From Mobula hypostoma (lineage: Eukaryota): DNA of 64,000 nucleotides. Location: contig NC_086108.1 in assembly GCF_963921235.1 (NCBI RefSeq), positions 78,804,001-78,868,000 on the forward strand, written 5' to 3'. Positions within the stretch are counted from its first letter, which is position 1. The number at the start of each line of letters is the position of its first letter. The notes beneath the pieces are model-generated. The model was not told the origin of the DNA and ran no database searches. It saw only the letters and a program-made list of their open reading frames with translations. Positions 2,562-63,742 of the stretch are shown here, in pieces. The position numbers and the translations under genes were made by a program.

Positions 2562-3297
2562 AGCCAATAGACAATAAACAAGAGGTGCAGGAGTAGGCCA
2601 TTCAGCCCTTTGAGCCAGCACCGCCATTCACTGTGATCATGGCTGATCATCCACAATCAGTACCCTGTTCCTGCCTTCTCCCCATATCCCTTGACTCTGC
2701 TATCTTTAAGAGTTCTAACTCTTTCTTGAAAGAATCCAGAGAATTGGCCCCCACTGCCTTCTTAGGCAGAGCATTCCACAGATCCACAACCCTCTGTGTG
2801 AAAAAGTTTTTCCTCAACTCCGTTCTAAATGGTCTACCCCTTATTCTTAAACTGAGGTCTCTGGTTCAGGAACATCAGGAACATGTTTCATGCCTCTAGC
2901 ATGTCCAATCCCTTAATAATCTTACATGTTTCAATCAGATCTCCTCTCATCCTTCTAGATTCCAGTGTATACAAGCCCAGTCGCTCCAATCTTTCAACAT
3001 ATGACATTCCCACCATCCCTGGAATTAACCCAGTGAACTTACGCTGCACTCCCTCCATAGCAAGAATGTTCTTCCTCAAATTTGGAGACCAAAACTGCAC
3101 ACAATACTCCAGGTGGGGTCTCACCAGGGCCTTGTACAACTGCAGAAGGACTTCTTTGCTCCTATACTCAACTCCCCTTGTTATGAAGGCCAACATGTCA
3201 TTAGCTTTCTTCACTGCCTGCTGTACCTGTATGCTTACTTTCAGTGACTGATGAACAAGGCCACCCAGATCTCGTTGTACTTCCCCTTCTCCTAACT
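2562..3297 (-). mobile_element. 5'-truncated CR1 LINE (ORF2 C-terminus plus 3' UTR)
   Basis: ORF 2888-3328 LYKALVRPHLEYCVQFWSP..RGDLIET. TSD tgattt at 2556-2561 and 3298-3303. Confidence 0.92.
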
Positions 3298-3310
3298 TGA
3301 TTTCCTGCGG

Positions 3311-3627
3311 CTTTCTCTGTGGCACCAAGGCTGTGAACTGATCTGGCTGCTGTGTGTTTCTGCCGCACTGGTGTGATGAACTAGGGCTGAGATTTGGCTT
3401 GGGCCTACTTCAGCTGCTACAGGAGAAGACTGGGACTCAGTCAGGCTCGCAATGGTGTTGGCTTGCTTCTGTTGTTTGCATGATGTGTTTTTATTTCCTC
3501 TCTCTTTCTCTTTTTTTTAAATTGGGGTATTTGGGTTTCTTGTTTTCTGGCTGCCTGTAGGTAGATAAATTTCAAGGTGTATAATTTATACATTCTTCAA
3601 TAATAAATGTGCTTTGAATCCTTGAAC
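3311..3627 (+). mobile_element. Non-coding retroelement fragment with Rex1-type 3' tail
   Basis: Ends 'ctgcctgtag..tcaaggtgtat..aataaatgtgctttgaatccttgaa', a tail shared with other Rex1 3' ends in the window. Confidence 0.55.
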
Positions 3628-6865: not shown

Positions 6866-8133
6866 CTCCCTCTTTTACGGATCGTGCTTTTCAAATTTGG
6901 AAGACTAAGGGTATTTCACGGTTTTTGGATTTATTTTTAGATGGTTCCCTTATGTCTTTTGAACAATTATCTAATAAATATAATTTATCAAGAATACATT
7001 TTTTTTAGATATCTACAAGTTAGAAATTCCCTAAGTACTATACTTTTTTCTTTTCCTATGCTTCCTCCTACATACATTTTAGATACTATAATTAACCTTA
7101 ATCCATGTCAGAAAGATGCATCTGCTATGATTTATAATATTATTATGAAACTTAGGAAAGCTCTATTTGATAAGATTAGGGTAGATTGGGAACAGGAATT
7201 GGGATCTATCATTTCCGTGGATGACCGGGGGCAGATTTTACAATTAGTCAATACTTCCTCTATCTGTGCTAAACATTCCCTAATTCAATTTAAAGTTGTT
7301 CATAGAGCACATATGTCCAAAGATAAATTAGCTTGCTTTTATTCTCATATTAATCCTTTTTGTTATAGATGTCCGGGGCAGATAGCCTCTTTAACTCATA
7401 TGTTTTGGTCTTGTCCTACTCTGGAAACTTTTTGGAGAGACATTTTTAATATTATCTCAAAGGTATTGAATATAGATATCTCTCCTCGCCCTATTACTGC
7501 TATCTTTGGACTACCTAAAATTTCCAGTAATCTTTCTCCTTCAGCCCGTAGAATGATTGCATTTCTTACTCTAATGGCGAAAAGATGTATCTTACAACAT
7601 TGGAAAGAGCTTAATGCTCCAACTACCTTTTTTTGGTTTTCTCAGACGATATTATGCTTGAATTTGGAGAAAATTAGAAGCAATCTTTATGATTCCTCAC
7701 TTAAATTTGAACAGACCTAGAGATCTTTTATTCAATATTTTCATTTAATGTAATTTTTTTTCTCTTTTTTTTGCTCCACATTTATATACCCTTCTTGTTT
7801 TTTTTTACTGTTTTTAATGGAGGTCGGGATTGAGGACGTGATTTTAAGTTTTTTAACTCTGCTTGGTTCCAAGTTAGCCCATTGCTTTGCTTTGCTTTTA
7901 GTTAGTTGCACAGTGGGGTTTTTTGGGGTTTTTTTTTTCTTTTTCTCTATTGATATATATATAAAAATTAGTATACTATTATGTTACCTTAGTATGTTAT
8001 GCTTAAATTACATTGTTTGTATCTTTTTTTTGTATTAATATCTCCTGTAATTTTATTACATTCTAACAGTGTATTAGTGCCTATATGGCTTACCTTTTTG
8101 TATACTTATTCAATAAAAAGATTTAAAAAGAAA
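6866..8133 (+). mobile_element. 5'-truncated L1/Tx1-clade LINE (ORF2 C-terminus with Cys/His motif, 3' UTR, A-rich tail)
   Basis: ORF 6941-7720 HSLIQFKVVHR..CYRC..SLTHMFWSC..FW. AATAAA and A-rich tail. 13-bp TSD gagattcattttc at 6853-6865 and 8134-8146, inside a Rex1 3' UTR spanning about 6810-8400. Confidence 0.92.
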
Positions 8134-8849: not shown

Positions 8850-9240
8850 CACAATAAGTATCTGGAGCAATGAACAAGCTATTGGAAGAACTCAGCATGT
8901 CAGACGGCATTTGTGGATACAAAAGGGACAGTTGACATTTTGTGACAAGACCCTGCATCAGAACTAAGAGTAAAGGGAAGACAGGCAGTATAAAGGGGTG
9001 AGGGAGAAGGGTGAAGCAGGAACTGGCAAGTGATAGGTGAATTGAGGTGAGGAGTTGTTGATGGGCAGGTAGAGACAGATGGAGTGGAGAGGGCAGAGAT
9101 GGAAGCTGGGAGGTGATGGTGGAGGCAACAAATGTTGAAAATCATGGAATCTGATAAGAAAGTATGGTAGTTATCAGAAGCAGATATGGATGGCTGCCGG
9201 ACAAAAGGGATAGAGAAATGAGTGGGCTGAGTGGTAAAGA
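8850..9240 (-). mobile_element. Degraded Penelope-like element 3'/pLTR fragment
   Basis: Purine-rich tract and a degenerate hammerhead motif (minus strand agttctgatgcagggtcttgtcacaaaatgtcaact), similar to other copies. Confidence 0.6.
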
Positions 9241-9970
9241 GATAAATAACTACTTCAGCTGGGAATCTCCAGTTCTCTCCTGAAGATCTGTGGAAGCCAT
9301 GTGAACTGCTGACTAGTTTAAAATCAGCTGCTGTCTGGGAAAGAAAGCAAAACCATGTAACATCTAACTCAGCCATAATAGTGAGTAATGCTCACCTTCA
9401 ATACTTAACCAGAACAGAAATTTTACATCAATGACTGCAACTGCGAACAATGCAACTGTTTGCCTTTGGGAATGGCCAATTTTGATGAATCCACAATACA
9501 ACATTTCATAAATGTATCTCAGGAACTAGCAATATGTCTTCCTGAGGTATGTCACCATTAAGTAATGCTGAGTATTAACAACTATTATGGAATATTCCAA
9601 ACTTGGATATGGACTTGTTTTTAAATCAAGCCTAAAAATCATTCTAAAATAAACATAAAAATGAATCAAAAGGATTTCTACTGTATGTCAGAAAGAAAAG
9701 CCAAGGCAAACATTGTTCCCTTAGAAGCAGAAATGGAAGAACTTATAAAGGGGAATAAGAAAATGTATAAGAAATTAAAGTGCTTTACACCCATCTTCAC
9801 TACGAATCAGCCAAAAACACCGAAGGTCCAACTCATCTTGCAAGGATGAGAAACTAAACAAGTATTAATCACAAAGTCATACCAGGAAATAACCTGCACT
9901 GAAGAACTTCAAAACAGGACTCCTTGAGAAGCGTAGTACGACTGGGCAGGTGCCGATTTATACAATTAAG

Positions 9971-12900
9971 ACCATAAGACAAAGGAGCAGAAGCCGGCCA
10001 TTCAGCCCATCCAGTCTGCTCTGCCATTTTATCATGAGCTGATCCACTCTCCTATTTAGTCCCACTCCCCCGCCTTCTCACCATAACCTTTGATGCCCTG
10101 GCTACTCAGATACCTATCAACGTCTACCTTAAATGCACCCAACGACTTGACCTCCACTGCCACCCGTGGCAACAAATTCCACAGATTCACCACCCTCTGG
10201 CTAAAAAAAATTCTTTGCATCTCTGTTCTGAATGGGCACCCTTCAATCCTTAAGTCATGCCCTCTCGTACTACACTCCCCCACCATGGGAAACAACTTTA
10301 CCACATCCACTCTGTCCATGCCTTTCAACGTTCGAGATGTTTCTATGAAGTCCCGCATTATTCTTCTAAACTCCAAGGAGTACAGTCCAAGAGCGGTCAA
10401 ACTTTCCTCATGTTAACCCTTTCATTCCCGGAATCATTCTAATTAATCTTTTCTGAACCCTCTCCAACGTCAGCACATCCTTGCTTAAATAAGGAGCCCA
10501 AAACTGCACACAGTACTCCAAGTGAGGTCTTACCAGTGCCTTATACAGCCTCAACATCACACCCCTGCTCCTATACTCTATTCGTCTAGAAATGAATGCC
10601 AACATTGCATTCGCCTTCTTCACCACCGACTCAACCTGGAAGTTAACCTTAAGAGTATCCTGCACGAGGACTCCCAAGTCCCATTGCATCTCAGAACTTT
10701 GAATTCTCTCCCCATTTAAATAATAGTCTGCCTGTTTATTTCTTCTACCAAAGTGCATAACTATACATTTTACAACATTGTATTTCATTTGCCACTTCTT
10801 TGCCCATTCTCCCAATCTATCCAAGTCTCTCTGCAGACTCTCTGTTTCCTCAGCATTACCGGCCCCTCCACCTATCTTTGTATCATCAGCAAACTTAGCC
10901 ACAAAGCTATCTATCCCATAATCCAAATCGCTGATGTACAACATAAAAAGCGGCTCCAACACGGACCCCTTTGGAACACCACTGGTGACGGGCAGCCAAC
11001 CAGAATAGGATCCCTTTATTCCCACTCTCTGTTTCCTGCCAATCAGCCAATGCTCTATCAACGTATGTAACTTTCCCGTAATTCCATGGGCTCTTATCTT
11101 GTTTAGCAGCCTCATGTGCTGCACCTTGTCAAAGGCCTTCTGAAAATCCAAATACACAACATCCACTGCATCTCCCTTGTCTAGCTACTTGTAATTTCCT
11201 CAAAAAATTGCAATAGGTTTGTCAAGCAGGGTTTTCCTTTAAGGAAACCATGCTCAGTTCTGCCTATCTTGTCATATGCCTCCAGGTACTTCATAACATC
11301 ATCCTTGACAATCAACTCCAACAACTTCCCAACCACCGATGTCAAGCTAACAGATCTATAATTTCCTTTTTGCTTCCTTGCCCATTTCTTAAATAGCGGA
11401 GTGACATTTGAAATCTTCCAGTCTTCCAGAACTATGCCAGAATCTACTGACTTTTGAAAGATCATTGCTAATGCCTCCGCAATCTCCACAGCTACTTCCT
11501 TCAGAACACGTGGGTGCATTCCATCTGGTCCAGGAGATTTATCTACCCTTAGAGTATTCAGCTTCCTGAGTACTTTCTCTGTCATAATTGTGACTGCGCA
11601 CGCTTCTCTTGCCTGCCACCCTTGAGTGTCCGGTATACTGCTGATGTCTTCCTCAGTGAAGATTATGCAAAATACTCGTTCAGTTCCTCTGCCATCTCCT
11701 TATCTACTATTACAATTTCTCCAGCATCATTTTCTGTCGGTCCTATATCTACTCTCACCTGTCTTTTACTCTTTATGTACTTGAAAAAGCTTTTAGTATC
11801 CTCTTTGATATTATTTGCTAGCTTCCTTTCATAGTTCATCTTTTCCCTCTTAATGATCTTCTTAGTTTCCTTTTGTAAGCTTTTAAAAACTTCCCATCCT
11901 CTGTCTTCCCACTAATTTTTGCTTCCTTGTATGCTCTCTCCTTTGCTTTAACTTTGGCTTTGACTTCTCCTCAGCCATGGTTGCAACCTTTTTCCATTCG
12001 AAAATTTCTTCTTTTTTGGAATACATCTGTTTTGCACCTTCCTCACTTCTCGCATAAATTCCAGCCACTGCTGCTCTGCCGTCTTTCCCGCCAGTGTCCC
12101 TTTCCAGTCAACTTTGGCCAGTTCCTCTCTCATGCCACTGTAATTTCCTTTACTCCACTGAAATACCAATACATCGGATTTCAACTTCTCTTTCTCAAAT
12201 TTCACAGTGAACTCAATCATGTTATGATCACTGCCTCCTAAGGGTTCCTTCACCTCAATCTCTCTAATCACCCCTGGTGCATTACACAATACCCAATCCA
12301 GTACAGCCGATCCCCTATTGGGCTCAACAACAAGCTGTTCTAAAAAGCCATCTCGCAGACATTCTACAAATCCATCGCCCATCTGTCGTTCCTGACATCT
12401 TTACTGCTCACTATCTTAGACTTATTTCTGTTTTCCCCCTCCTCCGCTCTATCATTCCGGTTCCAATCCCCCTGCCGAATTAGTTTAAACCCACCCTAAC
12501 AGCTCTACTAAACCTTCCCACCAGGATATTGGTCCCCTTCGGGTTCAGGTGTAACCCGTCCTTTTTGAACAGGTCATACTTCCCCCAGCAGAGATCCCAA
12601 GGATCCAAGAATCTGAACCCCTGCCTCCTGCACCAGTCTCTCAGCCACACATTCGTTGGCCTGATCCTACTATTCTTGCCCTTGCTAGCACGTGGCACAG
12701 GTAGTAATTCTGAGATTATACCCTGGAGGTCCTGCTTCTCAGCTTCCTTCCTAACTCCCGGAAATCTCCCTTCAGGACCTCCTCCCTTTTCCTATCTATG
12801 TCATTGGTACCAACTTGTACCAAGACAACTGGCTGCTCACCCTCTCCCTTCAGAATATTCTGGACCCGATCCAAGACATCCTGTACCATGGCACCTGGGA

Positions 12901-13013
12901 GCCAACACACCATGCGGGTATCTCTATCAGGCTCACAGAATCTCAGGTCCATTCCCCTGACTGTGGAATCCCCTATGACTACCACATTCCTCTTCTCCCT
13001 CCTTTCCTGCTGC
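9971..13013 (-). mobile_element. CR1 LINE with ORF1 SGNH-esterase part, internally deleted endonuclease, RT and 3' end
   Basis: ORF1 VVVIGDSTVRG..VQVGTNDI..DGLHLN. ORF2 SDHNMIEF, KSPGPDG, YLDFQKAFDKV, FADDTK, VRPHLEYC. TSD acaattaag at 9962-9970 and 13014-13022. Flanked by an older plus-strand CR1 remnant (about 9650-9960 and 13023-13385). Confidence 0.95.
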
Positions 13014-13385
13014 ACAATTAAGCTGGTGTTTGACTAACCAGGAGCAAATTAGACAAAGCTGAGTTGGTGAATGTTGTGCATTTGGATTATAGAAGGTTTG
13101 TGGTAAGGGTCCACACAGGAGGTTGGGCAACGATGTAGGAGTATGAAGTTGAATGCAGTATGCATATAGAGTTCAGAAATTGGCTAGACGGAGTGGGAGT
13201 GGGAACAAATGGATCATTCTCAGGTTGTCAAAGAGTGACTCGTGGGATACTGCTGTGATTGGCGCTTGCACACCAATTATTCAATGATTTTGCAGAGGGT
13301 CCATGTGACATATTTCAAAGTTTGGTAAGAATATGGCTGAAGAGGATGACCTAAAGGGGCTTCAAGTGGACATGGAGAAGTGTGG

Positions 13386-13620
13386 GGGGGGGCACAGTAG
13401 CATAGTGGTTAGCACAACACTTTACAGTACAGGTGACCCAGGTTCAATTTCCGCTGCTGACTGTAAGGACTGTAAGTGACCATGTGGGTTTCCTCCAGGT
13501 GCTCCAGTTTCCTCCCACAGTCCAAAGACCTACCTGTTGGTAGGTTAATTGGTCATTGTAAATTGTCCTGTGATTAGCCTAGAGTTAAACTGGGAGTCAC
13601 TGGGCAGCATGGCCCGAAAT
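13386..13620 (+). mobile_element. tRNA-derived V-domain SINE (HE1-like)
   Basis: A-box tagcatagtgg, B-box ggttcaatttc, core gggtttcctccaggtgctccagtttcctcccac. Confidence 0.85.
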
Positions 13621-13889
13621 AAAACTGTGTGTCTTATTGTAATGTAATGATGAAAAATACAGAGCTATCCACTCCACTGCACACCACATAAATCAGAGTT
13701 TTTTTTCAATGCTGAGAATTCGGGTGATGTAGATGTTTGATAAAGGCTTGCTGTTTTTCCATTTGAGTCAATGAAAGCCGACATGCTGGTGAAGTATGCA
13801 ATTAGGAATGTAAATGGTATGAGACCATAGCTTGCAGGTTGACTCGGTAGTAAGGAAGGTAAATGCAATGTTTGCAATAAGTTTGTGAG

Positions 13890-14510
13890 GACCAGAATAC
13901 AACAGCAAGGATGTAATGCTGAGGTTTTATAAGGCATTGGCCAGACCACACTTTGAGTATTGTGAACAATTTTGGGCTCCTTATCGAAGAAGAGGTGTGC
14001 TGGCATGGGCGAGGGTCCAGAGGAGGTTCAGGAGAATGATCCCATGAATTAAAGGGTTAACATACACGGTGCATTTGATTGCTCTGGGCCTGTACTTCCT
14101 AGAGTTTAGGAGAATGAGGGAGATCTCAGTACAACCTACCAAATATTGAAAGGTCTGGATAAAGTGGATGTAGAGAGGATGTTTCTTATATTGGGGGGAG
14201 TCTAGGATCAGAGGGCACAGCCTCAGAATCGAGGAATGACTCAACAGAGAACAGAGATGTGCAAAAATTTCTTTCGCCAGAGCATGGTGAATTTGTAGCA
14301 TACATTGACACAGACAGCTGTGCACGTCAGGTCATTAGATATATTTAAGGCAGAGGTTGATAGATTCTTGATTAATCAGGGTGCCAAAGGTTACGGGGAG
14401 AAGGCAGGAGAATGGGGCTGAAAGGGATAATAAATCAGTCATGATAGAATGGCGAAGCTGGCTCTATAGACCAAATGGCCTAATTTTGCTCCTATGCCTT
14501 ATGGTCTTAC
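13890..14510 (+). mobile_element. CR1 3' fragment
   Basis: High similarity to the reverse complement of 9971-10600. Ends ctaattttgctcctatgccttatgg. Confidence 0.9.
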
Positions 14511-15410
14511 AACAAGTAGAACAAGCAGTAGGCCATTCTGAGAGCTTCTGGCTGCATTTGCTGATGGCAAGAAGCCACAGCACGAGAAAGAGTGATGACT
14601 TACCCCATTACGCAAAAGCAAAATCATGATTTTGCTAAAATTAGTTGCTCTGATCCTCTTACTTGCTGAACAAAGGACTGTGGTAAAGCAGATTTGTGCC
14701 ATTAAGACCTGACCTCAAGTGCTAACCTGATAGAATGCAGCACGTTTAAAAACAGCCCACCTGATTTATCTATCAAGAACTTTCTTGAAAGTTAAAGCAA
14801 CTTTGTCACAAGGGTTTACACAGAATGAAATTAACCACATGAAGGTAATTATTTCCAGTTAATACACTATTGAAGCTTTCCCTTTCAAAAAAGTCACACC
14901 AATTATTGCTAGAACAGCTGCAGACATTAAATCAATGTTCCCACATTCCTGGGAGCAAAGAGAAATGCTGGAATCAGAGATTTATCTAATTTTAAAACAA
15001 TAAATTTGGAGAGCTTGTGAAACAAAGTGAAAAATCACATTCAGTGGATTCCAGCTAATTGGAACACATTGGAACAAGCACATTTTGGCCCAATTAAGCA
15101 GATGCCCCAATGAGTCAAAGTTTCATGGATATAGTTAAATGGTATAAAAGAGTCAAACTACCATTTAACTAAGTAAGAATTTGTGTCTTCAAGTGAACAG
15201 AGATGAGAAGGAGTTTCATTAGCCAGACAGTGGTGGATCTGTGGAATTCATTGCCACAGATGGCTGTGGAGGCCAAGTCATTGGGTATATTTAAAGGAGA
15301 GGTTGACAGATTCTTGATTAATCAGCGTGTCGAAGGTTATGGGGCTTCATTTAAACTGAACAGCTGACTTATTAAAATTCTAACACAAAACATCTAAGGC
15401 CATTCTTTCA

Positions 15411-15451
15411 ACACACATCAAAGTTGCTGGTGAACGCAGCAGGCCAGGCAG
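15411..15451 (-). mobile_element. 41-bp extreme truncation of a Penelope-like element end
   Basis: Nearly identical to the start of the copies at about 43698 and 61401. Flanked by a 10-bp duplication cattctttca (15401-15410 and 15452-15461). Confidence 0.85.
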
Positions 15452-15669
15452 CATTCTTTCACTCGTGAGACTCACAATACAGAATATAGTTGCTCAGATG
15501 AAGTCCTAAAAATGAAACATTGTCCATCCTGACATTAAGAAACAGTAAGGGGAATAGAGAATTGGTGAGATAGAAAATTAAAGCCCGACATAATCAAGTT
15601 CATTGGAACTCAGTACATGCCCCAGTACACAATCATTTTTTCCATACTCAATCTGATCTAAACCTACTC

Positions 15670-20594: not shown

Positions 20595-21333
20595 CAGGGG
20601 TCACCAACCTTTTTTACACCACGGACCGGTTTGATATTGACAATATTCTTGCGGACCGGCCGACCGGTGGGGGGGTGGGGGGTGTTAATCACGATCAGAA
20701 TATAGGTGATAAGTCAACTAAGTCCTTTATAAGTGGCTAATACACTCAATTTCATTTTTTAAAGGGTTTATCTAACTAATTTAATATTAAACACACAGCA
20801 CATATTTTCCCCGTATGAACATATAAAATCATTGCAACACACCAATATTGCTGAATCAGTGGGAGCCCTGGGCTTGTTTCCCTGCAACAAGACGGTCCCA
20901 TCGAGGGGTGATGGGAGACAGTGATACTCGAAGGGGGTTCCTTATGTCCAGTCTATTCTGCAATTTAGTTTTCGTTGCATTCATTGCAGAAAAGCCCGCT
21001 TCGCAGAGATATGTTGGAAATGGAAGCAACTTTTTCAGTACTTTCGTGGCTATCTCAGGATATTCAGCCTTGACTTTGATCCAGAATGCCGGCAGAGATG
21101 CTATGTCAAAGATACTTTTCAGCCCACCGCCATTTGCAAACTCGAAGAGTTGATCTTCTTCCCGCGCTAACATGGATGACGCGTGGGTCATGACCTTGCG
21201 TGCGTAATGACCTTGTGTGCGTTCAAGTTCCAACAGTGGGCGTGACAGGGAATGAGGAAAGGTGCAGCTGACCCATATCATTTCCTCGCGGCCCGGGAGC
21301 ACATGCTTTGTGGCCGGTGGTTGGGGACCACTG
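20595..21333 (-). mobile_element. hAT Charlie/Buster-type deletion derivative retaining the C-terminal dimerisation domain
   Basis: TIRs caggggtcaccaacc and ggttggggaccactg. Perfect 8-bp TSD gattaggc (20587-20594 and 21334-21341). ORF FWIKVKAEYPEIA..LLPFPTYLCEAGFS..KQAQGSH. Confidence 0.95.
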
Positions 21334-23150: not shown

Positions 23151-23955
23151 TAGAAACACAGAAAACCTACAGCACAATACATGCCCTTTGGCCCACAATG
23201 CTGTGCCAAACATGTACTTACTTTAGAAATTACTTAGGGTTAACAGCACACACAAAATGCTGGTGGAACGCAGCAGGCCAGGCAGCATCTATAGGAAGAA
23301 GTACATTCGGGGTTTCGGGCTGAGACCCTTCATTAGGACTAACTGAAAGAAGAGATAGTAAGAGATTTGAAAGTGGGAGGGGGAGGGAGAGATCCAAAAT
23401 GATAGGAGAAGACAGGAGGGGGAGGGATGGAGCTAAGAGCTGGGAAGTTAATTGGCAAAAGGGATACAGAGCTGGAGAAGGGAGAGAATCATGGGACGGG
23501 AGGCCTGGGGAGAAAAAGGGGGAGGGGAGCACCAGGGGAAGATGGAGAGCAGGTAAGGAGTTATTGTGAGAGGAGATGGTCTTCCCCTATCATTTCGGAT
23601 CTCCCCTTCCCCCTTTCAAATCTCTTACTATCGCTTCTTTCAGTTAGTCCTGACAAAGGGTCTCGGCCCGAAACGTTGACTGTACTTCTTCCTATAGATG
23701 CTGCCTGGCCTGCTGCGTTCCACCAGCATTTTGTGTGTGTTGCTTGAATTTCCAGCATCTGCAGATTTCCTCGTGTTTGTGTTAACAACAGCCCTCTATT
23801 TTTCTAAGCTCCATGAACCTATCCAAGAGTCTCTTAAAGACCCTGTTGTATCCAACTCCACTACTGTCGCTGGCAGCCCATTCCACGCACTCACCACTCT
23901 CTGTGTAAAAAATTTATCCCTGACATCTCCTCTGTAGCTAATCCCCAGCACCACG
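23151..23955 (-). mobile_element. CR1 3' end (hosts a Penelope-like hairpin)
   Basis: Matches the CR1 3' UTR at 38915-39190. Confidence 0.85.
23246..23780. mobile_element. Penelope-like inverted pLTR pair
   Basis: 23246-about 23412 is inverted at about 23579-23742. Each arm carries a hammerhead-like motif. gttaaca on both flanks. Confidence 0.85.
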
Positions 23956-24339
23956 TACCTGTGCTGGTGTGTGAAGTCAGCTCTGACAGACTGGATGGAT
24001 TAGATCTTCAGTAATAGCTAATGACCAGGAAGGTGGTACTCCAACTCTCCACAGAGAGCAAAGGGCATGACAATGCACAGAAGACGTCATGATCATCCAA
24101 TGCAATCAAGGGAGGCCCCAGTTTGTGATTTGCGTTTGTACCGCCAGACCCAGACTCTGAGGTCAAGAGTGGAACTCCCCAGGGCAACAGCCTTTTTACT
24201 TTAAAAACCCTCCCACACAGAAGTGTCATTGTTGGACACAACAGACAACCACCAGTATAACTATTTCCATCAACTTTGACTCACTGGCGCAGTTGCTTAA
24301 TTGGTCCAAAATGTGTATATACACACACACACACACACG

Positions 24340-25140
24340 GAGAAAGTATACAGTAAATGGCATAACCCTTAATGATTTACAGAAAGATTTTAGGACCCAG
24401 ATCCATAGCTCAGTGAAAGTGGCCACTCAGTGAAATAATAGATAAGGTGATAAAGGTGGTGTATTCCATGCTCACCATAGGGAAGTCAAGGTTGCAGCTG
24501 TACAGCCCTTTAGTCAGTCTGCACTAGGATTATTGTATGTCATTCAGTCACCTTATCAGATGAAGGATGTGAAGGCTTTGGGAAGGGTTCAGAAGCTGAC
24601 TAGATTCTAGGCTGCCTAGTTTAGAGGGTATGAGCAAGCAGAGGCTGAACAAACATGGGTTATTTTCTTCAGAGCGTTGGAATCCCTTTGTGGACTTCAG
24701 TTCAGAACACTATTTGCTTGCGTTTATTGTTTGCACAACTTGTTTTTTACTCTCTACACATTGGGAGTTTGATGTTCTTTTAAAAATTTTTTTTAGGTTT
24801 CTTGATTTCGCAGCTGCCTGTTAGGAGACGAATCTCAAGGTTGTATAAGGTATACACACTTTGATTATAACTGTACTTTCAACTCTGAACTTTGAGACTG
24901 AGGAGAAATGTGATATATTTATAAGATTATGAGAGGAATAGATAGGGTAAACAACAGAATATTTTCTCCCCCAGGGTAAAATATCAAATACGATAGGACA
25001 TGCTTTCAAGGTGAGAGGAAAAAGAATTTAAAGCGCCAAGATTTTTTTTCTCACTATGGTAGAAACATACAGTTTCCTTTGACATGTTGCTCGGTGCAGA
25101 TATTGTGGGCCAAAGGACCTGTTCCTGTGCTGTATTCTAA
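24340..25140 (+). mobile_element. Old CR1 3' fragment interrupted by a Rex1-type tail (about 24680-24895)
   Basis: Degenerate CR1 ORF2 C-terminal sequence and 3' UTR (gggccaaaggacctgttcctgtgctgta). Confidence 0.7.
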
Positions 25141-30052: not shown

Positions 30053-31030
30053 ACACATCTGCCTTCATCTCCCACCACCATAACAGTGATGGGATTTCCC
30101 TTGTCCTTAACTACTACACTACAAGCTCATATGCAGCACATCATTGTCTGTAACTACCACGATATCCAGTGGGATCCTACCACAAAGTACATCTTTCCAC
30201 TTCACTTTCCGCATTCCACAGGGATTGCTCTCTACATGACTCTCTTGTTTACTCATCCTTCCCCAGTGAGCTGCCTCCCAACACGTATCCTTACAGGTGC
30301 GACAAGTGTCACACCTGCCTCTACACCTCCTCCCCCACCACCATTCGGGGCCACACAGACCTTCCAGGTAGGAGACACTTCACCACCGAGTCTGTCAGAG
30401 TCATCTGTAGTATCTGGTTCTTCTCTCAGTGCAGCCTCTTCTACACCAGTGAAACCAGATGTAGATGGGAGGGATCACTTCGTCGAGCACCTTCACACTG
30501 TCCGCCGCGTAAGGCAGGATCTTTCAGCAGCTACCTAGACTCTGGCTGGAGGAGCAATACCTCATAAACCATCTGGGTAGCTTTCAACCTGATCACACAA
30601 ACATCAATTTCTCTAACTTCCAGTAACATTTTTTTCTCCTCCCCATACTCCATTCTTCTGGTTCCCCTCTCATCCCTTCTCTTCTGCATACTTGCCCATC
30701 TCCTCCCTCTAGTGCTCATCCTCCTTCCCCATCTTCTGTGGTCCACTGTCTTCTCCTATTAAATTTCTTCTTCTTTAGCCCTTTATCTCTTCCACCTATC
30801 GCCTCCCCCAACAATGCAACTTCCCCCTCACCTGGTTTCAACTACCACCTGCTAGCCTGTACTCCTTCCCACCTCCTTATTCTGGCTTCTGCCCCCTTCC
30901 TTTCCAGTCCAGACAAAGGGTCACACCGCCTGTTTACTCCCCTCTGTAAATGCTGCCTGACTTGCTGAGTTCCTCTATTATTTTGAGCATGTTGCTCAAG
31001 ATTTCCAGCATCTACAGAATCTCTCGAGTT
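30053..31030 (+). mobile_element. Penelope-like element 3' part (decayed GIY-YIG region plus pLTR)
   Basis: TYPYRCDKCHTC..HFTTESVRVICSIW..CSLFYTSET..DHFVEHL. Pyrimidine tract and terminal gctgcctgacttgctgagttcctc. Confidence 0.85.
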
Positions 31031-32220: not shown

Positions 32221-32590
32221 AAACATGAGAGATTCTACAAATGCTGGAGATCCAGAGTAACTCACACAACATGCTGGAGGAGCTCAGAAGTTTAAATCTT
32301 CACTTTGATGGGAGCTCAATGAGACCCTCTCTCACTGCTACCCCTCTGATTGACTCTTTGACAATGTGCTTATCCAGACACACTTCTACATCCCTTGTTC
32401 TTCACCCATCACATGCCAGTTTATAATCTTTCCCCTCTTCACACCTTCTTATTCTGTTCTTATTCTGGCTCCACTACCCCCCCCCCACCCCACTTTCCGG
32501 TCTTGAGGAAGGGTCTCGACCCAAAACGTCACTATCGATTATTTTGTGTGTGTTATTCTGGATTTCTAGCATCTGCAGAATCTCGTGTTT
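32221..32590. mobile_element. Penelope-derived element with inverted ends
   Basis: aaacatgagagattctacaaatgctgg at the left end and ctagcatctgcagaatctcgtgttt at the right end. Degenerate hammerhead at about 32500-32532. Confidence 0.7.
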
Positions 32591-33786: not shown

Positions 33787-33900
33787 ACAATATTCACCAT
33801 CTTATTCCAATGTTTTATGTATCTAAAAAATAACAAAAGTTATTATGTCCAAATGGGGTTTTCTGGAAGTGCTGGCACAGATGAAAGTAATTTCCCACTG

Positions 33901-34170
33901 ACACTAGAGATTCTGTAGATGCTGGAAATGTTGAATAAAGCACAAAAATGTTGGAGGATCTCAGCAGGTCAGGAAGCATTTATGGAAAAGAATAAACAAT
34001 CGGTGCTTCTGACCTTGACCCTTCATCAGGACCAGAAAAGAAGCAGGCTGGCTTCTGCCTTCTTCCCTTTCAGTCATGATGAAGGGTCTCGGCCCGAAAT
34101 ATTTATCACCCCCCCCCATAAACGCTGCCTGACTTGCTGAATTCCTCCAGCATTTTGTGTATGTTGCTCA
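33901..34170. mobile_element. Penelope-derived hairpin element with two opposed hammerhead remnants
   Basis: The arms are reverse complements. cccttcatcagg at about 34019-34030 and tgatgaagggtctcggcccgaaa at about 34077-34099. Confidence 0.8.
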
Positions 34171-40690: not shown

Positions 40691-40992
40691 ATAAATATTA
40701 CCTTGTTATTCCTTTAATATCACTGTTTTATGTGGAGTGAAATTTGCTATTTAACAGTAGCAGTAGAGTACAAAGACATAAAATCACTATCAGTTATTAA
40801 AAATAAATAGTGCAAAAAATCTGATTCTGATTTGAAAAAAATAAATATGAGGTGGTGAAAAGTAGCATCACGTGTTCCCACAATAAGACCTGTACTCATG
40901 ACAAATATCTAAATGAAACTTAAATGCTCTCAGCTTATCCTTCCACTCTGCCCCAAAGAGTTCACTAGAGAAATTCCAGGCTTCTGCAAGGT

Positions 40993-41144
40993 AACGCACA
41001 CAAAACGCTGTTGGATCTCAGTAGGTCAGGCAGCATCTATGGAAAAGAACCCTTTCCATAGATGCTGCCTGGCCTGCTAAGTTCCTCCAGCATCTCGTGT
41101 GTGTTACTATGGATTTCCAGTATCTGCAGAGTTTCTCTTGTTTG
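40993..41144. mobile_element. Penelope-derived short hairpin element
   Basis: aggcagcatctatggaaa and tttccatagatgctgcct form a perfect inner stem. One arm is extended by about 35 nt. Confidence 0.8.
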
Positions 41145-41194
41145 CAGTCTTCAACATCTTGATTTTCTGAATACGTCTTTGAATGGATGGAAAT

Positions 41195-41861: not shown

Positions 41862-42260
41862 GACAAGAAAATGCAAATACTGGAGGTTGAAGCAAATAAT
41901 AAATTCAGTGGATCAGACAGCATATGTGTATGCAAGGAGACGGTCCAAATTTCAGGTCAACTCCCTGTACAAGGACTGAGAGTGTAGAGGAATGAAAGCT
42001 GGTATAGAGAAGCGAGGACATGAGGTGAGACAGAGGCTGCTAAGTGTTAGGTTAGACTCGGGGGAGGGGGCGTCAGGGCTGCTTGCAAGTGAGGGAGGGG
42101 GAGAGTGGAACAGGTAATAGGTGGATACACAAGTCGAAAAAGGCAGATGGAGTCAGGCTGGGGAGGAGAGGGAACAGGAAGGGCTCTTCTGATTTTCATT
42201 TGGTGTCACCATGTCTGTGAAGAATGCTGAGAATAGACATGTTGGGATGGGAAGTTGAAA
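41862..42260 (-). mobile_element. Old Penelope-like remnant
   Basis: Degenerate terminal motif and purine tract similar to 8850-9240. Confidence 0.5.
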
Positions 42261-43020: not shown

Positions 43021-43696
43021 AAGTTTAATTAGATGTATTAGATCTTGCTAGGTGTTCATGGCTGGTTTACCTTCAACAGGAGTCCTTGATTTTTAGTAGA
43101 TTTGCATATGCTAACCCAATAAAGACATTTATGTAGTGCTAAGGATTCCTGTGAATCTAAGTGTCAGGTTAAGATCAGTCATAACACTCTCCACACACAA
43201 AATCGGAAGCTTAGTCTGCAAGTCCTACTCCTAGTTGACACTTATGCAGTACAGCTCTGAAGGAGTGTCAAAAGTTATCTCTCCGTCAGGATGCGATCCG
43301 AGTATTTGTGCAGATGCGAATATCCTGCGCCAATAAACAAGAAACAGCTGCACACTTCCAGGTAATTGGGAAGGTTACACTGGTATTTCTGGGACCTTCC
43401 TTACTTCAAACTTGGCGTAGTCCTTACCTTCATGACAAAAGAAAGGCACTCTAAGTTCAGATAGAAATTCATCGACCCAAAACATCAACTACTAACCCAC
43501 CACCACTACTTTATCATCTCCTGTCAGTCACTCTATATACAGACGCTCCTGTACCTAGCATCATTTTATGGACGTGTAATCAATCTAGGAATATAAGCTA
43601 TCTTATGTATTTATATTTAATGTGTTTTTTTTATTATTATTGTGCTCTTTATCTTATTTTGTTATTTTGTGCTGCATCCGATCTGGAGTAACAATC

Positions 43697-44246
43697 AACA
43701 CACATCAAAGTTGCTGGTGAACGCAGCAAGCCAGGCAGCATCTCTAGGAAGAGGTACAGTCCACATTTCAGGCCAAGACCCTTCGTCAGGACTAACTGAA
43801 GGAAGAGTTAGGAAGAGATTTGAAAGTGGGAGGGGGAGGGGGAGATCCAAAATGATAGGAGAAGACAGGAGGGGGAGGGATGGAGCCAAGAGCTGGACAG
43901 GTGATTGGCAAAGGGGATATGAGAGGATCATGGGACAGTAGGCCCAGGGAGAAGGAAAAGGGCGGCAGGGGGGAACCCAGAGGATGGGCAAGGGGTATAG
44001 TCAGAGGGACAGAGGGAGAAAAAGGACAGCGAGAGAAAGAATATGTCCATAAAAATAAATAGCGGATGGGGTACGAGGGGGAGGTGGGGCATTAGCAGAA
44101 GTTAGAGAAGTCAATGTTCATGCCATCAGGTTGAAGGCTGCCCAGACGGAATATAAGGTGTTGTTCCTCCAGCCTGAGTGTGGCTTCATCTTTACAGTAG
44201 AGGCCGTGGATAGACATGTCAGAATGGGAATGGGATGTGGAATTAA
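43697..44246 (-). mobile_element. Penelope-like element 3' part with hammerhead motif
   Basis: Same family as 23246 and 61401. Includes the end of the GIY-YIG region. Motif agtc-ctgacga-agggtcttggcct-gaaa at about 43758-43794. Confidence 0.88.
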
Positions 44247-44372
44247 AAAATCATTTTGTTCATCTTTACACTTGTGTACTGGAAATTACATTAAAACAAT
44301 CCCGAATCTTGAAAATGGTAAACTTAAAAAAACTTGGGATTGCACTGAATTCTTCTTTCTCCAATGCTAATA

Positions 44373-44814: not shown

Positions 44815-46820
44815 CCTTGAAGATGTCCTGTAGGCTAGTACCCAAGATGGAGCCCATTAAATTTACAAACTTCTGCAGCTTCTTTCAGTCCTGTGCAGCA
44901 GCCGCCCCCCCCGCCACCATACCAGTGATGCAGCCTGTCAGAATGCCTCCACTGCACATCGATAGAAGTTTTTGAGTGTATTTGTTGACATTCCAAATCC
45001 CTTCAAACTTCTAATGAAGTATAGCCGCTGTCTTGCCTTCTTTATAACTACATCGATATGTTGGGACCAGTTATCCCTCCATGAGGATGGGTATGTGTTC
45101 CTTCTTCCTACCTTTCATGAAGTCCACAATCAGTTATTTTGTCTTAGTGCCAGGTTGTTGCTGCAACACCACTCCACCAGTTGGCATATCTCACTCCTGT
45201 ACACCTTCTCATCACCACCTGAGATTCTACCAACAATGGTTGTATTGTCAACAAATTTATAGATGATATTTGCGCTACACAGTCATAGGTATAGAGAGAG
45301 TAGAGCAGTGGGCTAAGCACACACCCCTGAAATGCACCAGTGTTGTTCGTCAGCGAGAGGGAGATGTTATCACCAATCCGCACAGATTGTGGTCTTCTGG
45401 TTAGGAAGTCGAGGATCCAATTGTAGAGGGAGGTACAAAGGCCCAGGTTCTGCAACTTCTCAATTAGGTTTTTGGGAATGATGGCATTAAATGCTGAGCT
45501 ATAGTTGATGAACAGCATCCTAATGCAGGTGCTTGTGTTATCCAGGTGTGACAGAGCCATTGAGATTGCATCTGCCATTGACCTATTATGGCGATAGGCA
45601 AATTGCACTGGGTCCAGGTTTTTGCTGAGGCAAAAGTCATTCTAGTCATGACCAACCTCTCAAAGCATTTCATCACTATAGATGTGAGTGCTACTGAGCG
45701 ATAGTCATTAAGGTAGCCAACATTATTCTTCTTAGGCACTGGTATAATTGTTGCCTTTTTGAAGCAAGTGGGAACTTCTGTCTGTAGCACTGAAAGGTTG
45801 AAAAAGTCCTTGAATACACCCGCCAGTTGGTTGGTACAGGTTTTCAGAGCCCTACCAGGTACTCCATCAGGACCTTCCGCTTTGCGAAGGTCCACTCTCT
45901 TTAAAGACAGCCTAACATCGGCCTCTGATACAGATCACAAGGTCATCAGGTGCAGCAGGGATCTTCACAGCTGTAGTTATATTCTCCCTTTCAAAGCGTG
46001 CATAGAAGGCATTGAGTTCATCTGGTAATGAAGCATCGCTGCCATTCATGCTATTGGGTTTTGCTTTGTAGGAAGTAATGTCTTGCAAACCCTGCCAGGA
46101 TGTCGTACATCCAATGTCGTCTCCAACCTTGTTCAAAATTGTCTCTTCGCCCTTGAAATAGCCCTCCGCAAATCATACCTGGTTTTCTGGTACAGGCCTG
46201 GGTCGCCATACTTAAATGCCGCAGATCTAGCCTTTAGCAGACGATGTACCTCCTGGTTCATCCACGGCTTTTGGTTTGGGGATGTACAGTAAGTCTTTGT
46301 AGACAGACACGCATCCACACAGGTTTTGATGAATTTGGTAGCAAATGCAACATACTCATCCAGGTTCGAAGATGAATCCCTGAATACAGTCCAATCCATC
46401 AATTCAAGGCAAACCTGTAGGCGCTCCTGTGCTTCCCTTGTCCATACCTTCTTGGTCTTCACTGCTGGTGCTGCAGTCTTCAGTCTCTTCCTATAGTCGT
46501 TCCTATACTCGGGGAGTAGAAGTACAGCCATGAGATCAGACTTCCCGAAATGAGGACGTGGAATAGCATGGCAGGCATTCTTGATGGTGGTATAACAATG
46601 GTCCAGTGTGTTGTTTCCTCTAATATTGCAAGTGATCTGTTGATGGGAATTGCTTAGTGATTTTTTCAGATTAGCCTGGTTAAAATCTCTCAAAACAATA
46701 GTGAAGATGTTGGGATGCGCTGTTTTGTGCACGTTGATTCCATTGCTCAGATTATCAAAAGATTGATTGACATTGGCCTGAGGTGGAATGTATACTGCCT
46801 CCAAAACGACCCCAGAGAAC
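44815..46820 (-). mobile_element. Rex1/Babar LINE (APE endonuclease C-terminal part plus RT)
   Basis: [61 protein letters not shown]. Confidence 0.93.
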
Positions 46821-47822
46821 TCCCTGATCAATAAGCTACAGAACCTGTGCCTCTGCCCCTCCCTCAGCAACTGGATCCTCAACTTACTAACCAGAAGACC
46901 ACAATCTGTGCAGATTGGTAGTAATATATCCTCCTTGCTGATGATCAACATTGGCGCACCTAAGGGGTTGTGTGCTTAGCCCACTGCTGTACTGCCTCTG
47001 TACTCATGACTGTGTGGTAAGGTACAGCTCAAATTCCATCTATAAATTTGCTGATGATACAACCATTGTTGGTAGAATCTCAGATGCAGACAAGAGGGCG
47101 TACAGGAGTGAAATATACCAGCTAGTTGAGTGGGGTCGCAGCAACAACCTGGCACTCATCGTCAGTAAGACCAAAGAGCTGATTGTGGACTTCAGGAATG
47201 ATTAGACGAGTGAACATGAACCAATCCTCATAGAGGGATCAGAATTGGGAGAGAGTGAGCAATTTCAAGTTCCTGGGTGTCAAGATCTCTGAGGATCTAA
47301 CCTGGTCGCAACATACTGATGCAGCTATACAGAAGGCAAGACAGCGGCTTTATCTGATTAGGAGTTTAAATAGATTTGGTTTGTCAACTAAATCACTCAA
47401 AAACTTCTATAGACGTACTGTGGAGAGCATTCTGACAGGCTGCATCACTGTCTGGAAAGGCTACTGCACAGGACCGAAAGAACCTAGAGAAAGTCGTGAA
47501 ATTATTCAGCTCCATCTTGGGTACTAGCCTCAGTAGTATCCAAGACATCTTCAAACAATGGTGCCACGGAAAGACAACTTCCATTACCAGGGACCCAGGA
47601 CATACCCCTTCTCACTGTCACTGTCAGGAAGGAGGTACAGAAGCCTGAAAGCACACACTCAGTGATTCAGGAACAGCTTCTTCACCTCTGCCATATGATT
47701 CCCAAATGGACATTGACCCCATGAACACTACCTCACTTGTTTTTAATACTACTGAGGATAGTACTGCACTGCTCCTGTTAAGTTAACAAATTTGACAAGA
47801 TATAATAAACTTGATTCTGATT
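46821..47822 (+). mobile_element. Rex1/Babar LINE 3' part (RT plus 3' UTR)
   Basis: [27 protein letters not shown] and FKFLGV..KARQRLY. Confidence 0.92.
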
Positions 47823-53195: not shown

Positions 53196-54200
53196 TAACA
53201 AAAGAGACTCAACATTCAAAGAGGTGCAAACAGATTTAATTGGCTTCAAGGAGTCATAGCTATAGGATGATCAAGGCTGGGAGATTAACACACAAGGGAC
53301 TGGAATATGTAGGATGGAAAGTTGAGGAGGTGAGGTGAGGTGAGGTGGCATGGTTAGTAAAAGATAAAGTCTCACTTTCTAGAATCAAGGCATAAAGACC
53401 GAGAATCCGAATCTTCCCTTTAATCACAATGTTATTAGAATGGACCTTCAAGGTGTTACAATAGTAGGGGATATCATGATGTCCAATCCAAGACTTGCTT
53501 TGACCAGAAGTTGTACAATACAACAAAAACAAAGACATTCTTTCTTAACATTTTGAAGTTACACAGCAAATCAATACAAGAGAATTCAGTTTCAAACCAC
53601 ATTTTCCTCTTGATGAATGGTGACAGCATTGTTTCAAAGGAGTACTGGTTATCCCCAAAGAGCTGAAGGGTTCTTTTTCAAATCTGCCAATTTGTAGATG
53701 GTTTATCTGTAACATGCATTTGTTCATAACAGCCTGACGACTGTTGTCAATGATTCCCCAGTTATTCTTCAAACATGCTTTCTACTTTGGGATTTAAAAG
53801 CAATGAAAAGTGATCTGCATATTATGGTAATCTGTGGGATATTAAGGAGGATTGTGTGTTCTTGGCATAAGACCCATTGGATTGTTTCACACAAGCCTCA
53901 CGTGTATGAGGCAACAGAAAGCTGGGCTTTCCTGATAACTGAAAGCTCAGATCATGATAATTTCTGTTACAAGACCATGAGTTTTGTTTAAAATACTTTT
54001 GAAAAAGATATCTGGCAACTCCAGTTCAGTGTTCTCTAAGAAATATTACATGTACAAAACAAATAACAAATCAATGAGCAATCCTATAAACATTAACTGC
54101 TGAGTAACACACAGAAAGCGCTAGAGGAATTCAGCAGGTCAGGCAGCATCTATGGAGAAAAATAAAGAGCCAATGATTTGGGCCGAGACCCTTCATCAGG

Positions 54201-54586
54201 TGCCATCAACCCACTGTTACTCTAACACTTCCGTTTCCTTTACACGCACGGCTTTAGTGGATTTATGGATTGGAATGAAATCCAGTCAAATAGATATTCC
54301 TCAGTCAGCTTGCGAGCTCATCTATTTCAAACACGAGAAAATCTGCGGATGCTGGAAATCCAAGCAGCACACACAAAATGCTGGAGGAACTCAGCAAGTC
54401 AGACAGCATCTAAGAAGAGGAAGAAACAGCTAAAATTTCGGACCAAGACCCTTGGTTGCGTGCTACCAACTATGTTATTCTAACATCACCTTTTTCTCTA
54501 CCAGCATGGCTTTATTTGATATATACATTGGAATTAAATCCAATCTATTAGAGATTCCACAGTCAGCTTGCTCGGTCATTTACTTT
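54201..54586. repeat. Diverged ~125-bp direct duplication separated by a Penelope-derived insert (54328-54452)
   Basis: attggaatgaaatccagtc..agatattcctcagtcagcttgc versus attggaattaaatccaatc..agagattccacagtcagcttgc. Confidence 0.8.
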
Positions 54587-54817: not shown

Positions 54818-55810
54818 ACACAAGAAAGCCTGCAGATGCTGGAAATCCGAAGCACCACACACAAAATGCTAGAGGAAATGAACAAACAGTCGACGTTTCC
54901 TGCCAAAACCCTTCTTCAGGACTGGAAAGGAAGGGAGAAGTCACCAGAATAAACGTAAAAAGGGGGGAGAGGAGGGGAAGGACAATAGCTAGAAGGCGAT
55001 AGTTAAAGCCAGGTGGGTGGAAAAGGTAAAGGGCTGGAGAGGAAGAAATCTGATTGGAGAGGAGAGTGGACTATAGGAAAAAGGGAAGGGGGGGGAAGAG
55101 TCCCGGGGGAGGTGATAGGCAGATAAGAAGAGGTAAAAGGCCAGAGTGGGAAATAGAATAAGAGAGGAGAGAGGGGTAATTTTTTTTAATACTGGAAGGA
55201 GAAATCGATATTTGTGCCATCAGGTTGGAGGCTACCCAGACAGAATATAAGGTGCTGCTCCTCTACCCTGAGGGTGACCTCAGTTTGGTACGAGGATTCT
55301 GCACCGACATGTCGGAACGGGAATGGGAACCAGAATTAAAATGTTTGGCTACCAGAAAGTTCTGTTTTTGGCAGATGGAGCAGGGATGCTCAACAAAGCA
55401 GCCCCCCCAATTTACAACTGGTCTTACCAAGGCAGAGGAGGCCACAACAGGAAGGCCGGACACAATAGACAACCCCAGCAGATTCGCAGGTGAAGTGTTG
55501 CCTCACCTGGAAGGAGTGTCTGGGGCCCTGAATGAAGGCGAGGGAGGAGGTGAATTGGCAGGTGTAGCACTCTGGCCACTTGCAAGGGTAAGTGCCACAA
55601 GGGAGATTAGCATTCATGGGTGGTAGGTGAGGATATGAGGAACTCTATTCACTGTTAGGGCAGCAGGAAGATGGGGTGAGCACAGATGTTGGGGAAATGG
55701 AGAAGATGCAGGAAAGGGCAGCATCTATGGTGGAGGAAGCAAAACCTCTTTCTTTGAAGGACGACGACATCGGAAAGCCACATCCTGGGAACAGATGCAG
55801 CAGAGACATA
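54818..55810 (-). mobile_element. Penelope-like element 3' part (GIY-YIG plus pLTR)
   Basis: GTYPCKWPECYTC..FQVRQHFTCESAGVVYCV..CGLLCLGKT and VAKHFNS..H. Hammerhead core at 54888-54923. Confidence 0.9.
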
Positions 55811-61348: not shown

Positions 61349-61400
61349 CTACAATATAGTTGGCTGCCTACTATAAATAAAAGTGGTCCAGTAATTGGAC

Positions 61401-61603
61401 AACACACATAAAAGTTGCTGGTGAACGCAGCAGGCCAGGCAGCATCTCTAGGAAGAGGTGCAGTCAACGTTTCAGGCCGAGACCCTTCGTCAGGACTAAC
61501 TGAAGGAAGAGTGAGTAAGGGATTTGAAAGTTGGAGGGGGAGGGGGAGATCCAAAATGATAGGAGAAGATAGGAGGGGGAGGGATGGAGCCAAGAGCTGG
61601 ACA
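61401..61603 (-). mobile_element. Truncated Penelope-like pLTR insertion
   Basis: 11-bp flanking duplication agtaattggac (61390-61400 and 61604-61614). Confidence 0.9.
61462..61497 (-). ncRNA. Minimal type I hammerhead ribozyme motif
   Basis: Minus strand agtc-CTGACGA-agg gtctcgg cct-GAAA-C-GTT-gact: intact core, stem I, stem II, palindromic stem III and NUH site. Confidence 0.75.
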
Positions 61604-62009
61604 AGTAATTGGACCTTCAAATTTCCTTTTCTTTCATGGGAAACTACCCAATATTCACCATGCCTTTCCACGGCAAGAATCCTGAGAACTAATAGTGCAG
61701 AAAACACAGAGATAAACCCACAGTGCTATAAGGTGCTTCACAAATTAATGGTTTTGCCAAAATGTTAAATAGTAATAGACTCTGAAACTATTTCAGGAAA
61801 AATGCAATAACAGAATGGAGATTTTTTTCAAGAGCAGCTCAGTGTTTATAGGTCAAAGATGAAAAGCATATTTTCTATAAAATCCAATCATCATCTCCCA
61901 TATGAGATGGAAGTCTATTCCATAAATTAGCAACCCAATTATTCCCAAGATATTCCCCTTATCTGGTTAACAATACAATTGAAAGGTATATTAAATGATC
62001 AACCAAATA

Positions 62010-62299: not shown

Positions 62300-63742
62300 G
62301 GAGACAGTTGCTTGAAGGAGATAAGCAGATTCACTTGTGTTGTATTCTGATAATTAAAGGATGTGAGAAAGGAGAAAATAAATGGGCAAGGGTGAGAAGG
62401 GGGACAAAAATGGGAGGATTGGAGGATCAAGAGAAGAATAGTGGGGGAGGGGGAGTACAAGAGAGTGTGAATGGGATGAGAAGTTACCTAAAATTGGAGA
62501 ACTCAATATTTCACAAGCAGAATATAAAGTACTGCTTCACCAGTTTTATTTGGGCTTCAACTTGGGAGTAGAGACAGATCATCCTTTCAATTTGGGAATG
62601 GAGAGGGGAAATGAAATGGCCTACAACTGGGCACTTGGAATGACCACTGCAGAATGAGTGTTGGTATCCTGCAAAGCAGTCATTGGTCACCAAGTCTACA
62701 CCAAGAGGAGGCCTGATCAGGAGCAAAGTTGGAGAAGATGCTTTGAACCTTTATCTGACCTATAAGGGCTGTTTAGGTCCTTGGATGATTGTGAAGGAGA
62801 AAAATACTGTAGTCACATTTACTGCGAGGGAAGCTTCCTTAAATAGGATGCAGAAAGGTGGGTTTATTGTAAATCTCAGTGGATAGTTTGTATCCTGAGA
62901 TGGAGTCAATGAGATCAAGAGTGAGAGAAGCATCAGAAATAGTCCAAGTGAATTTGACAGCAGACTGGAAGCTCTGCAGAACATATCAATTTCATCACCT
63001 TCACCACCAACTTTCCCACAGCTACTTAAATTAGACCTCTTTCCTTCCTTCCTGTTTCTTGCAAGGATACCATTCCTTTTCTCCCAGATTTTCCAACTCT
63101 GCTTTCTGCTCCAGGGCATCGTTATTTTCAGAGAGTATGGCTTTCCTTCTTTAGGTTGATGGAGCCCAATCGCGTATCTCCGTTTCTCATAACTGTGCTC
63201 TCACCCACCACCTCCCAGACAGAACAGAGAGAGTTCCCTTTGTCTTTACCTTTCATCTCATGAGCCTCTGCATCCAGCTCATCATCCTTCTTCATTTCCA
63301 CCAGATCAACATGACCTCACCAGCAAACCCATTTTCCACAGGGACCACTCTCTCCATGATTCCACGATCCACTCGTCTCATCCCTCCCTTAGTCCTGGCA
63401 CTTTCGCTTGTAACAGATATAACACCTGCCCTTACATCGCATCCCTCACAACCATTCAGGCACCTAAATAGTCCTCCCAGTGAGACAACGGTTTACAAGC
63501 ATCGCCTCCAACCCTACATACTGCATTTGGTGCTCCTGATGTGGTCTTCTCAACAACATCAAGACCAAGTGCAGCCTAGGCAACCTATTTGCAGAACACC
63601 TACAGATCTCAGTCCACAATGATCATCCCAAGCTCCCAGTTGCAGACCAGCTCAATTCCCCTTCCCATTTCCACACTGGCCTGCCCATCCTTGGCCTCCT
63701 CTACTGCCAGGATGAAGCCCACTGCAAACCGGAGAAGCAACT
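62300..63742. mobile_element. Old Penelope-like fragments (about 62300-62830 minus; about 63100-63742 plus)
   Basis: Degenerate matches to 30053-30600 and 55200-55600. Confidence 0.65.

Follow-up and report, generated by a model that had tools for sequence, protein, structure and literature searches.

The minus strand of the window analysed here, a stretch of 64,000 nucleotides, carries a complete minimal type I hammerhead ribozyme motif at 61461..61498, referred to below as the 61462 copy, with related motifs scattered over the remainder of the stretch. The question raised by this locus is whether the scattered motifs form a dispersed ribozyme system that cleaves a host intron, as the initial annotation proposed, or are the debris of a transposable element with a hammerhead of its own. 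Were the former true, transposon debris would act on host pre-mRNA in a new manner, with dispersed halves complementing each other over long distances. We consider it very probable that the motif is an ordinary passenger hammerhead in a short, dead and young copy of a Neptune-type Penelope-like element (PLE), inactive alone and decaying along with its family.

Structure of the hammerhead and its published relatives

The motif is identified by its letters, by a descriptor match and by its agreement with the published consensus. The letters and strand given by the initial annotation (61462..61497, minus) are confirmed, and its description of the motif as intact is borne out: all 11 invariant core positions are present with U at H17, and the complete descriptor, which comprises the core, helices I and II, the palindromic helix III and an NUH site, has its sole match in the window here, and matches none of 100 random 64-kb sequences. 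Helix I has 5 bp, with 61498–61494 paired with 61465–61461 through four Watson-Crick pairs and one wobble. The core segment C3–A9 starts at 61493 and is followed by an extra A, helix II, G12–A14, ACGU, and U17 at 61466, which puts the predicted cleavage between 61466 and 61465. The 4 bp of helix II (GGGU/GCCU) comprise two Watson-Crick pairs and two wobbles, and G10.1–U11.1 closes the stem. Helix III is the palindromic ACGU (A15.1–U16.1), and there is no loop 3. Both of these stems had been drawn differently before. The proposed palindromic stem AACGUU includes A14, which belongs to the core, and U17, which is the cleavage-site nucleotide, and the proposed agg/ccu pairing of helix II gives way to the published register, which has the extra A after A9; this A is present in all 13 motif-bearing copies in the window.

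The G10.1–C11.1 consensus pair is absent from the 61462 copy, which has G-U in its place, while the family majority is G-C (8 of 13 copies). The family shows a CG/TG/CA pattern at both the U11.1 and U17 sites, and disabling CpG decay was considered for these two residues of the 61462 copy and rejected, as both occur among published natural examples; by our hand count, U17 occurs in 24 of 56 and G-U at 10.1–11.1 in 8 of 56 (PMC4209133), so that the label "intact" holds. GUU is a valid NUH cleavage site; the fastest sites are GUC and GUA, and cleavage does not take place at NUG (PMC3138052). Judged by sequence, U17 and G10.1–U11.1 are thus tolerated variants and no lesions by themselves, and the 61462 copy may match its parent element in competence; U11.1, which it has in common with its sibling at 43757, may be a subfamily trait.

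Minimal hammerheads have been described in the terminal repeats (pLTRs) of metazoan PLEs by Cervera and De la Peña in 2014 (PMC4209133), and the likeness is extensive. Shared features are the type I topology, CUGANGA with an extra nucleotide, G10.1, GAAA-CG-UH, a palindromic 15.2–16.2 with no loop 3, a U-rich upstream flank, a 3' repeat behind the RT and GIY-YIG domains, and the prevalence of single, dispersed, truncated copies; dispersed single copies numbering thousands per genome are already reported there. The differences are that helix II is 4 bp here as compared with 7–8 bp in the S. mansoni families, that there is no cartilaginous fish among the 56 rows of Fig. S3 of that paper, and that the local density is high here, with 13 motifs in 64 kb. 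In the same study a single minimal motif was assayed in vitro; its monomer did not cleave, and its dimer and trimer did so at a low level. We found no paper specific to chondrichthyan PLE hammerheads or to their intron orientation bias in a literature search that covered few subscription journals. The motif class has been known since 2014; the 61462 copy adds a cartilaginous-fish example to it and brings no conceptual change. What PLE hammerheads do is described as still open (PMC8557442).

Insertion, family copies and Penelope remnants

The 61462 copy lies in a Penelope-like insertion of 213 bp (61400..61612, minus), which is 5'-truncated and consists of the 3' terminal-repeat end only. It is 94% identical to 43696–43908, with 13 differences, ends 66 nt beyond the predicted cut site, and is solitary rather than tandem. 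A target-site duplication of 10–11 bp flanks it, with the upstream copy (61604..61614, minus) overlapping the 5' junction of the element through microhomology and the downstream copy at 61390..61400 (minus); of 5000 random draws, 27 gave a shared 10-mer between nearby flanks. At 15409–15454 (minus) the same young subfamily has a 46-bp tail-only insertion, likewise with a target duplication (9–10 bp) and junction microhomology. Its first base is about 25 nt beyond the cut site, and its end base is the same as those at 61400 and 43696.

An iterated nhmmer search of the window returns 18 family matches, 13 motif-bearing copies and five tail-only fragments, and the reversed window, used as a control, gives none at E<1. 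Nine of the motif-bearing copies are on the minus strand and four on the plus strand. The ten further positions at which related motifs had been named are all family copies, and two that were unlisted (41941–41978 and 54427–54464) raise the count to 13. The copy at 43757..43794 (minus; the 43760 copy) is of the same young subfamily as the 61462 copy and has an intact core, with G17, which is not NUH, and a helix III of AUGU with a wobble. The copy at 54887..54924 (minus; the 54888 copy) has an intact core, helix I, ACGU and a GUC site, and the two outer pairs of its helix II are broken. The other minus-strand copies are decayed: 8929..8966 (A9C, G12A), 23304..23341 (G5A, U16.1C), 33997..34034, the old copy at 41941..41978 (four core changes), and 54427..54464 (four core changes) and 54167..54204 (G12A, A15.1U), the first and second units of a tandem pair. 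On the plus strand, the copy at 23645..23682 has a single core change (G8A) and a 30–40 bp tail, and those at 30905..30932 (GAAA half deleted), 32498..32535 (C3U, G12A, helix I lost) and 34071..34108 (C3A, helix I lost) are decayed. Beyond the window, two metagenome scans of public collections yielded no further copies; a viral contig with a 20-nt match has no hammerhead and was taken as a chance hit.

Back-to-back inverted pairs are formed by the copies at 23304 and 23645, by those at 33997 and 34071 (33900–34170), and by the fragments at 40992 and 41035 (40990–41145). The inverted PLE ends at 23243–23780 are flanked by a common 7-bp sequence, with the 30–40 bp tail on the plus-strand end only, and are possibly one insertion. 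The region 54100–54585 (minus) consists of two tandem units of about 260 bp, about 74% alike, each with a leader of about 120 bp that is not PLE-like, a decayed hammerhead and a tail. Both cores are broken, and the whole looks like either a local duplication or a non-LTR retrozyme of two units in decay. Non-LTR retrozymes (Cervera and de la Peña 2020, PMC7229834; Li et al. 2026) likewise carry type I hammerheads that are related to those of PLEs and function as dimers, but they are close tandem repeats of about 50–970 bp with mostly canonical motifs, whereas the 61462 copy is solitary and has a target duplication; the decayed 54105/54350 pair is the only tandem arrangement here. Retrozymes are reported in one chondrichthyan, along with depletion from Xenopus introns (Li et al. 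2026, bioRxiv 10.64898/2026.07.22.740005).

Three of the 13 motif copies (43757, 54887 and 30905) lie just 3' of same-strand remnants of a Penelope RT/GIY-YIG protein. Upstream of the 54888 copy there is a frameshifted ORF remnant (55198..55791, minus) with the RT C-terminus, a C-x4-C-x2-C linker and a GIY-YIG endonuclease, upstream of the 43760 copy a GIY-YIG C-terminal remnant (44098..44247, minus), and upstream of the 30905 copy a further Penelope ORF remnant (30070..30623, plus). By tblastn these remnants match P0002, a Hypanus sabinus (stingray) protein that has RT motifs as well as a GIY-YIG domain; the remnant at 44098..44247 is 82% identical to it over 51 aa. Going by this best homologue, the host is probably a cartilaginous fish. 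These remnants, together with the consensus fit, uphold the earlier assignment to the Penelope-type minimal hammerheads of the dimer class. All four full-length relatives scanned have RVT_1 and, at the C-terminus, GIY-YIG, mostly below the Pfam cut-off, with DKG present, and the CX2-5CxxC linker between RT and EN is found in the window remnant at 55393–55644 and in 7 of 7 relatives checked. This linker marks the Neptune and Nematis clades alike (PMC8557442), and the remnants upstream of the hammerheads would be of Neptune type by that linker, also found in Nematis. Neptune EN+ PLEs (Craig et al. 2021, PMC8557442) have in common with the sequences here the C-terminal GIY-YIG, the linker, 5' truncation, inverted 5' copies, an optional 30–40 bp tail and a hammerhead near the 3' end; the window differs in having fragments only.

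P0002 is annotated as an isoform of 'divergent protein kinase domain 1C' and is almost wholly Penelope RT and GIY-YIG, and it is therefore probably mis-annotated or an exonised element. Near the 61462 copy there are two older, diverging Penelope ORF remnants, at 62487–62973 (minus) and 63227–63740 (plus), and no hammerhead was detected behind either.

Decay of the copies

The hammerhead core does not stand out from its surroundings among the 13 copies. The initial annotation had looked to a core kept above its flank, or to a strand bias, for signs of function; outside CpG sites, core mismatches to the majority occur in 15 of 113 cells and flank mismatches in 44 of 302 (p=0.87), and the excess of minus-strand copies is not significant (9 of 13, p=0.27). 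The flank in this comparison is a 26-nt downstream block, which contributed to the detection of the copies and may be under constraint too, and the 13 copies belong to several subfamilies scored by majority rule, so that weak selection on the cores would be missed. All 11 core positions taken together give the same picture (22 of 138 mismatches vs flank, p=0.77), and three of 13 cores are intact where 2.7 are expected from the flank divergence. With this low power in mind, the conservation of core above flank that is seen in domesticated ribozymes does not appear across these paralogues.

Four CpG sites read TG or CA in 22 of 52 cells and CG in 16 of 52; a fifth CpG, at N7, was set aside, U7 being among the normal variants. 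An A replaces G12 in 3 of 12 copies and G8 in 3 of 13; both residues are catalytic in hammerheads (PMC6155905). Helix pairing across 12 copies, a small and decayed sample with the deleted 30905 copy left out, is retained in 80.6% of cells, a value reached by 245 of 500 shuffles.

Origin of the motif and competing explanations

The arrangement of the element suggests how the 61462 copy could have arisen. In the parent element two motifs, one in each terminal repeat, would pair via ACGU and swapped helix I strands and, going by the literature, cut the precursor RNA of the element itself. The predicted cut site is spanned by each of the 13 motif-bearing copies, so that their template RNAs would have been uncut or rejoined, and none of the five tail-only copies begins there, as judged by eye. 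The 61462 copy would then derive from reverse transcription of an RNA uncut at this point, which presumably stopped after about 210 nt, and the truncated product would have integrated with the 10–11 bp target duplication. It would owe its intactness to its youth and not to upkeep by the host, and it would decay like the remaining family, largely by CpG deamination. A lone monomer is unable to form helix III, and the 61462 copy is expected to be inactive as a monomer by analogy with its published relatives.

One alternative is that the motif is a chance look-alike and no ribozyme motif at all, which we regard as practically negligible. The bare core pattern is indeed at chance level in the window (7 seen vs 7.4 expected), the folding energy of the motif is unremarkable (z -0.12), Rfam gives no gathering-score match in the window and no hammerhead match at E<=10, where its two matches are chance ones, and 12 of the copies show no covariation above shuffles. 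Covariation is not expected among decaying paralogues, however, and the absence of the full descriptor from 100 random windows, the fit to the consensus beyond the core, including the additional nucleotide that follows A9 and a flank rich in U upstream, and the placement of the motif where PLE hammerheads are described all contradict chance. Another reading is that the 61462 copy is competent but inconsequential and, if transcribed, is cut by or cuts in trans the RNA of other young copies at a low rate with no selected function. Every published consensus element is present, its variants are known in nature, and with 13 copies per 64 kb partners would be plentiful; against this, two dilute RNAs would have to meet through 14 bp, each opening its own helix I, and the templates of the 13 motif-bearing copies would have been uncut or rejoined, with no tail-only copy starting at the predicted cut site. 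We hold this to be very unlikely.

The remaining alternative is the proposed dispersed system. In it, a host pre-mRNA on the minus strand would hold the 61462, 54888 and 43760 copies, and the 61462 enzyme would cut the GUC of the 54888 copy 6.5 kb downstream, affecting splicing or transcript level; extended to the genome, partly decayed hammerheads in long introns, at about one per 5 kb, would complement each other in the same way and impose an orientation-dependent load of pre-mRNA cleavage, which would show in a scarcity of compatible pairs on the sense strand. The 61462 copy does have an intact core and helix II, and with the 54888 copy it would form a helix III of four Watson-Crick pairs and exchange its helix I strands completely. 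The net loop-closing cost at 6.5 kb is estimated at 9.4 kcal/mol, near the 8.6 kcal/mol at 3 kb, so that distance alone does not speak against the pairing, and motif spacing in full PLEs is about 2–3.6 kb (Table S1, PMC4209133). There is also precedent for intronic self-cleavage at the level of the host, in the domesticated intronic and discontinuous hammerheads of amniotes (RECK, CLEC2; PMC6155905), the latter showing that a ribozyme can be assembled from distant halves, and in the intronic HDV-like ribozyme of CPEB3 (PMC10919898). These domesticated ribozymes are single-copy, conserved and active as monomers, whereas the 61462 copy is one of a repeat family, is young and lacks loop-loop contacts, and no host gene was found in the window. 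Given nine minus-strand copies among 13, the three intact cores would all fall on the minus strand, as they do, with a probability of 0.33. Both proposed partners are defective: the 43760 copy cannot be cut, owing to its G17, and the 54888 copy, with two outer helix II pairs broken, could be a substrate but not an enzyme. Free co-folding favours an extended non-catalytic duplex (-22.1 vs -8.8 kcal/mol), although an idealised control is disfavoured too, and about equally (+10.1 vs +9.1 kcal/mol), and nearest-neighbour energies were rejected as a discriminator. Close dimers of the natural minimal hammerhead assayed previously were cleaved weakly (PMC4209133), 8 of 9 Xenopus retrozyme dimers showed no cleavage (bioRxiv 10.64898/2026.07.22.740005), and slow intronic ribozymes are reported to be without effect on splicing (Fong et al. 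2009, as cited in PMC10919898). No host exon was found in the window, where 296 of 434 unmasked ORFs of at least 40 aa, compared with Pfam, gave transposon domains and weak spurious matches, and a crude splice-site scan, which could miss small exons, gave 31 candidates, none of them convincing. Core decay equals that of the flank, the dispersed system is unsupported, and nothing in this sequence analysis points to scattered copies teaming up to cut host RNA; we judge cleavage within such a host transcript highly improbable and give hardly any credence to the genome-wide load. A passenger hammerhead in a dead PLE copy accordingly remains the preferred reading of the 61462 motif, and the family, young and high in copy number, is good material for testing whether introns are under selection against intact cores in sense orientation.

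Antisense copies would pair far more strongly, at -75 kcal/mol over 38 nt, but they are at least 27 kb away and were for this reason given little weight. A weak Peptidase_M14 match at 24161–24430 was considered as a host exon and rejected, having no PDB match; it resembles a CR1-type remnant. The window also contains two copies of a repeat of about 690 bp, at 20595–21279 and, as an inverted sibling with 83% identity, near 60.2–60.9 kb. The repeat has no Pfam match, and its ORF is presumably the C-terminus of a hAT-type transposase. The long ORFs are mostly LINE fragments (2500–4500, 6941–7720, 9950–14500 and 45000–47500), with recognisable pieces including RVT_1 (10411–11184), zf-RVT (6941–7717), an endonuclease (46136–46975) and a GDSL-like piece of ORF1 (12483–12791).
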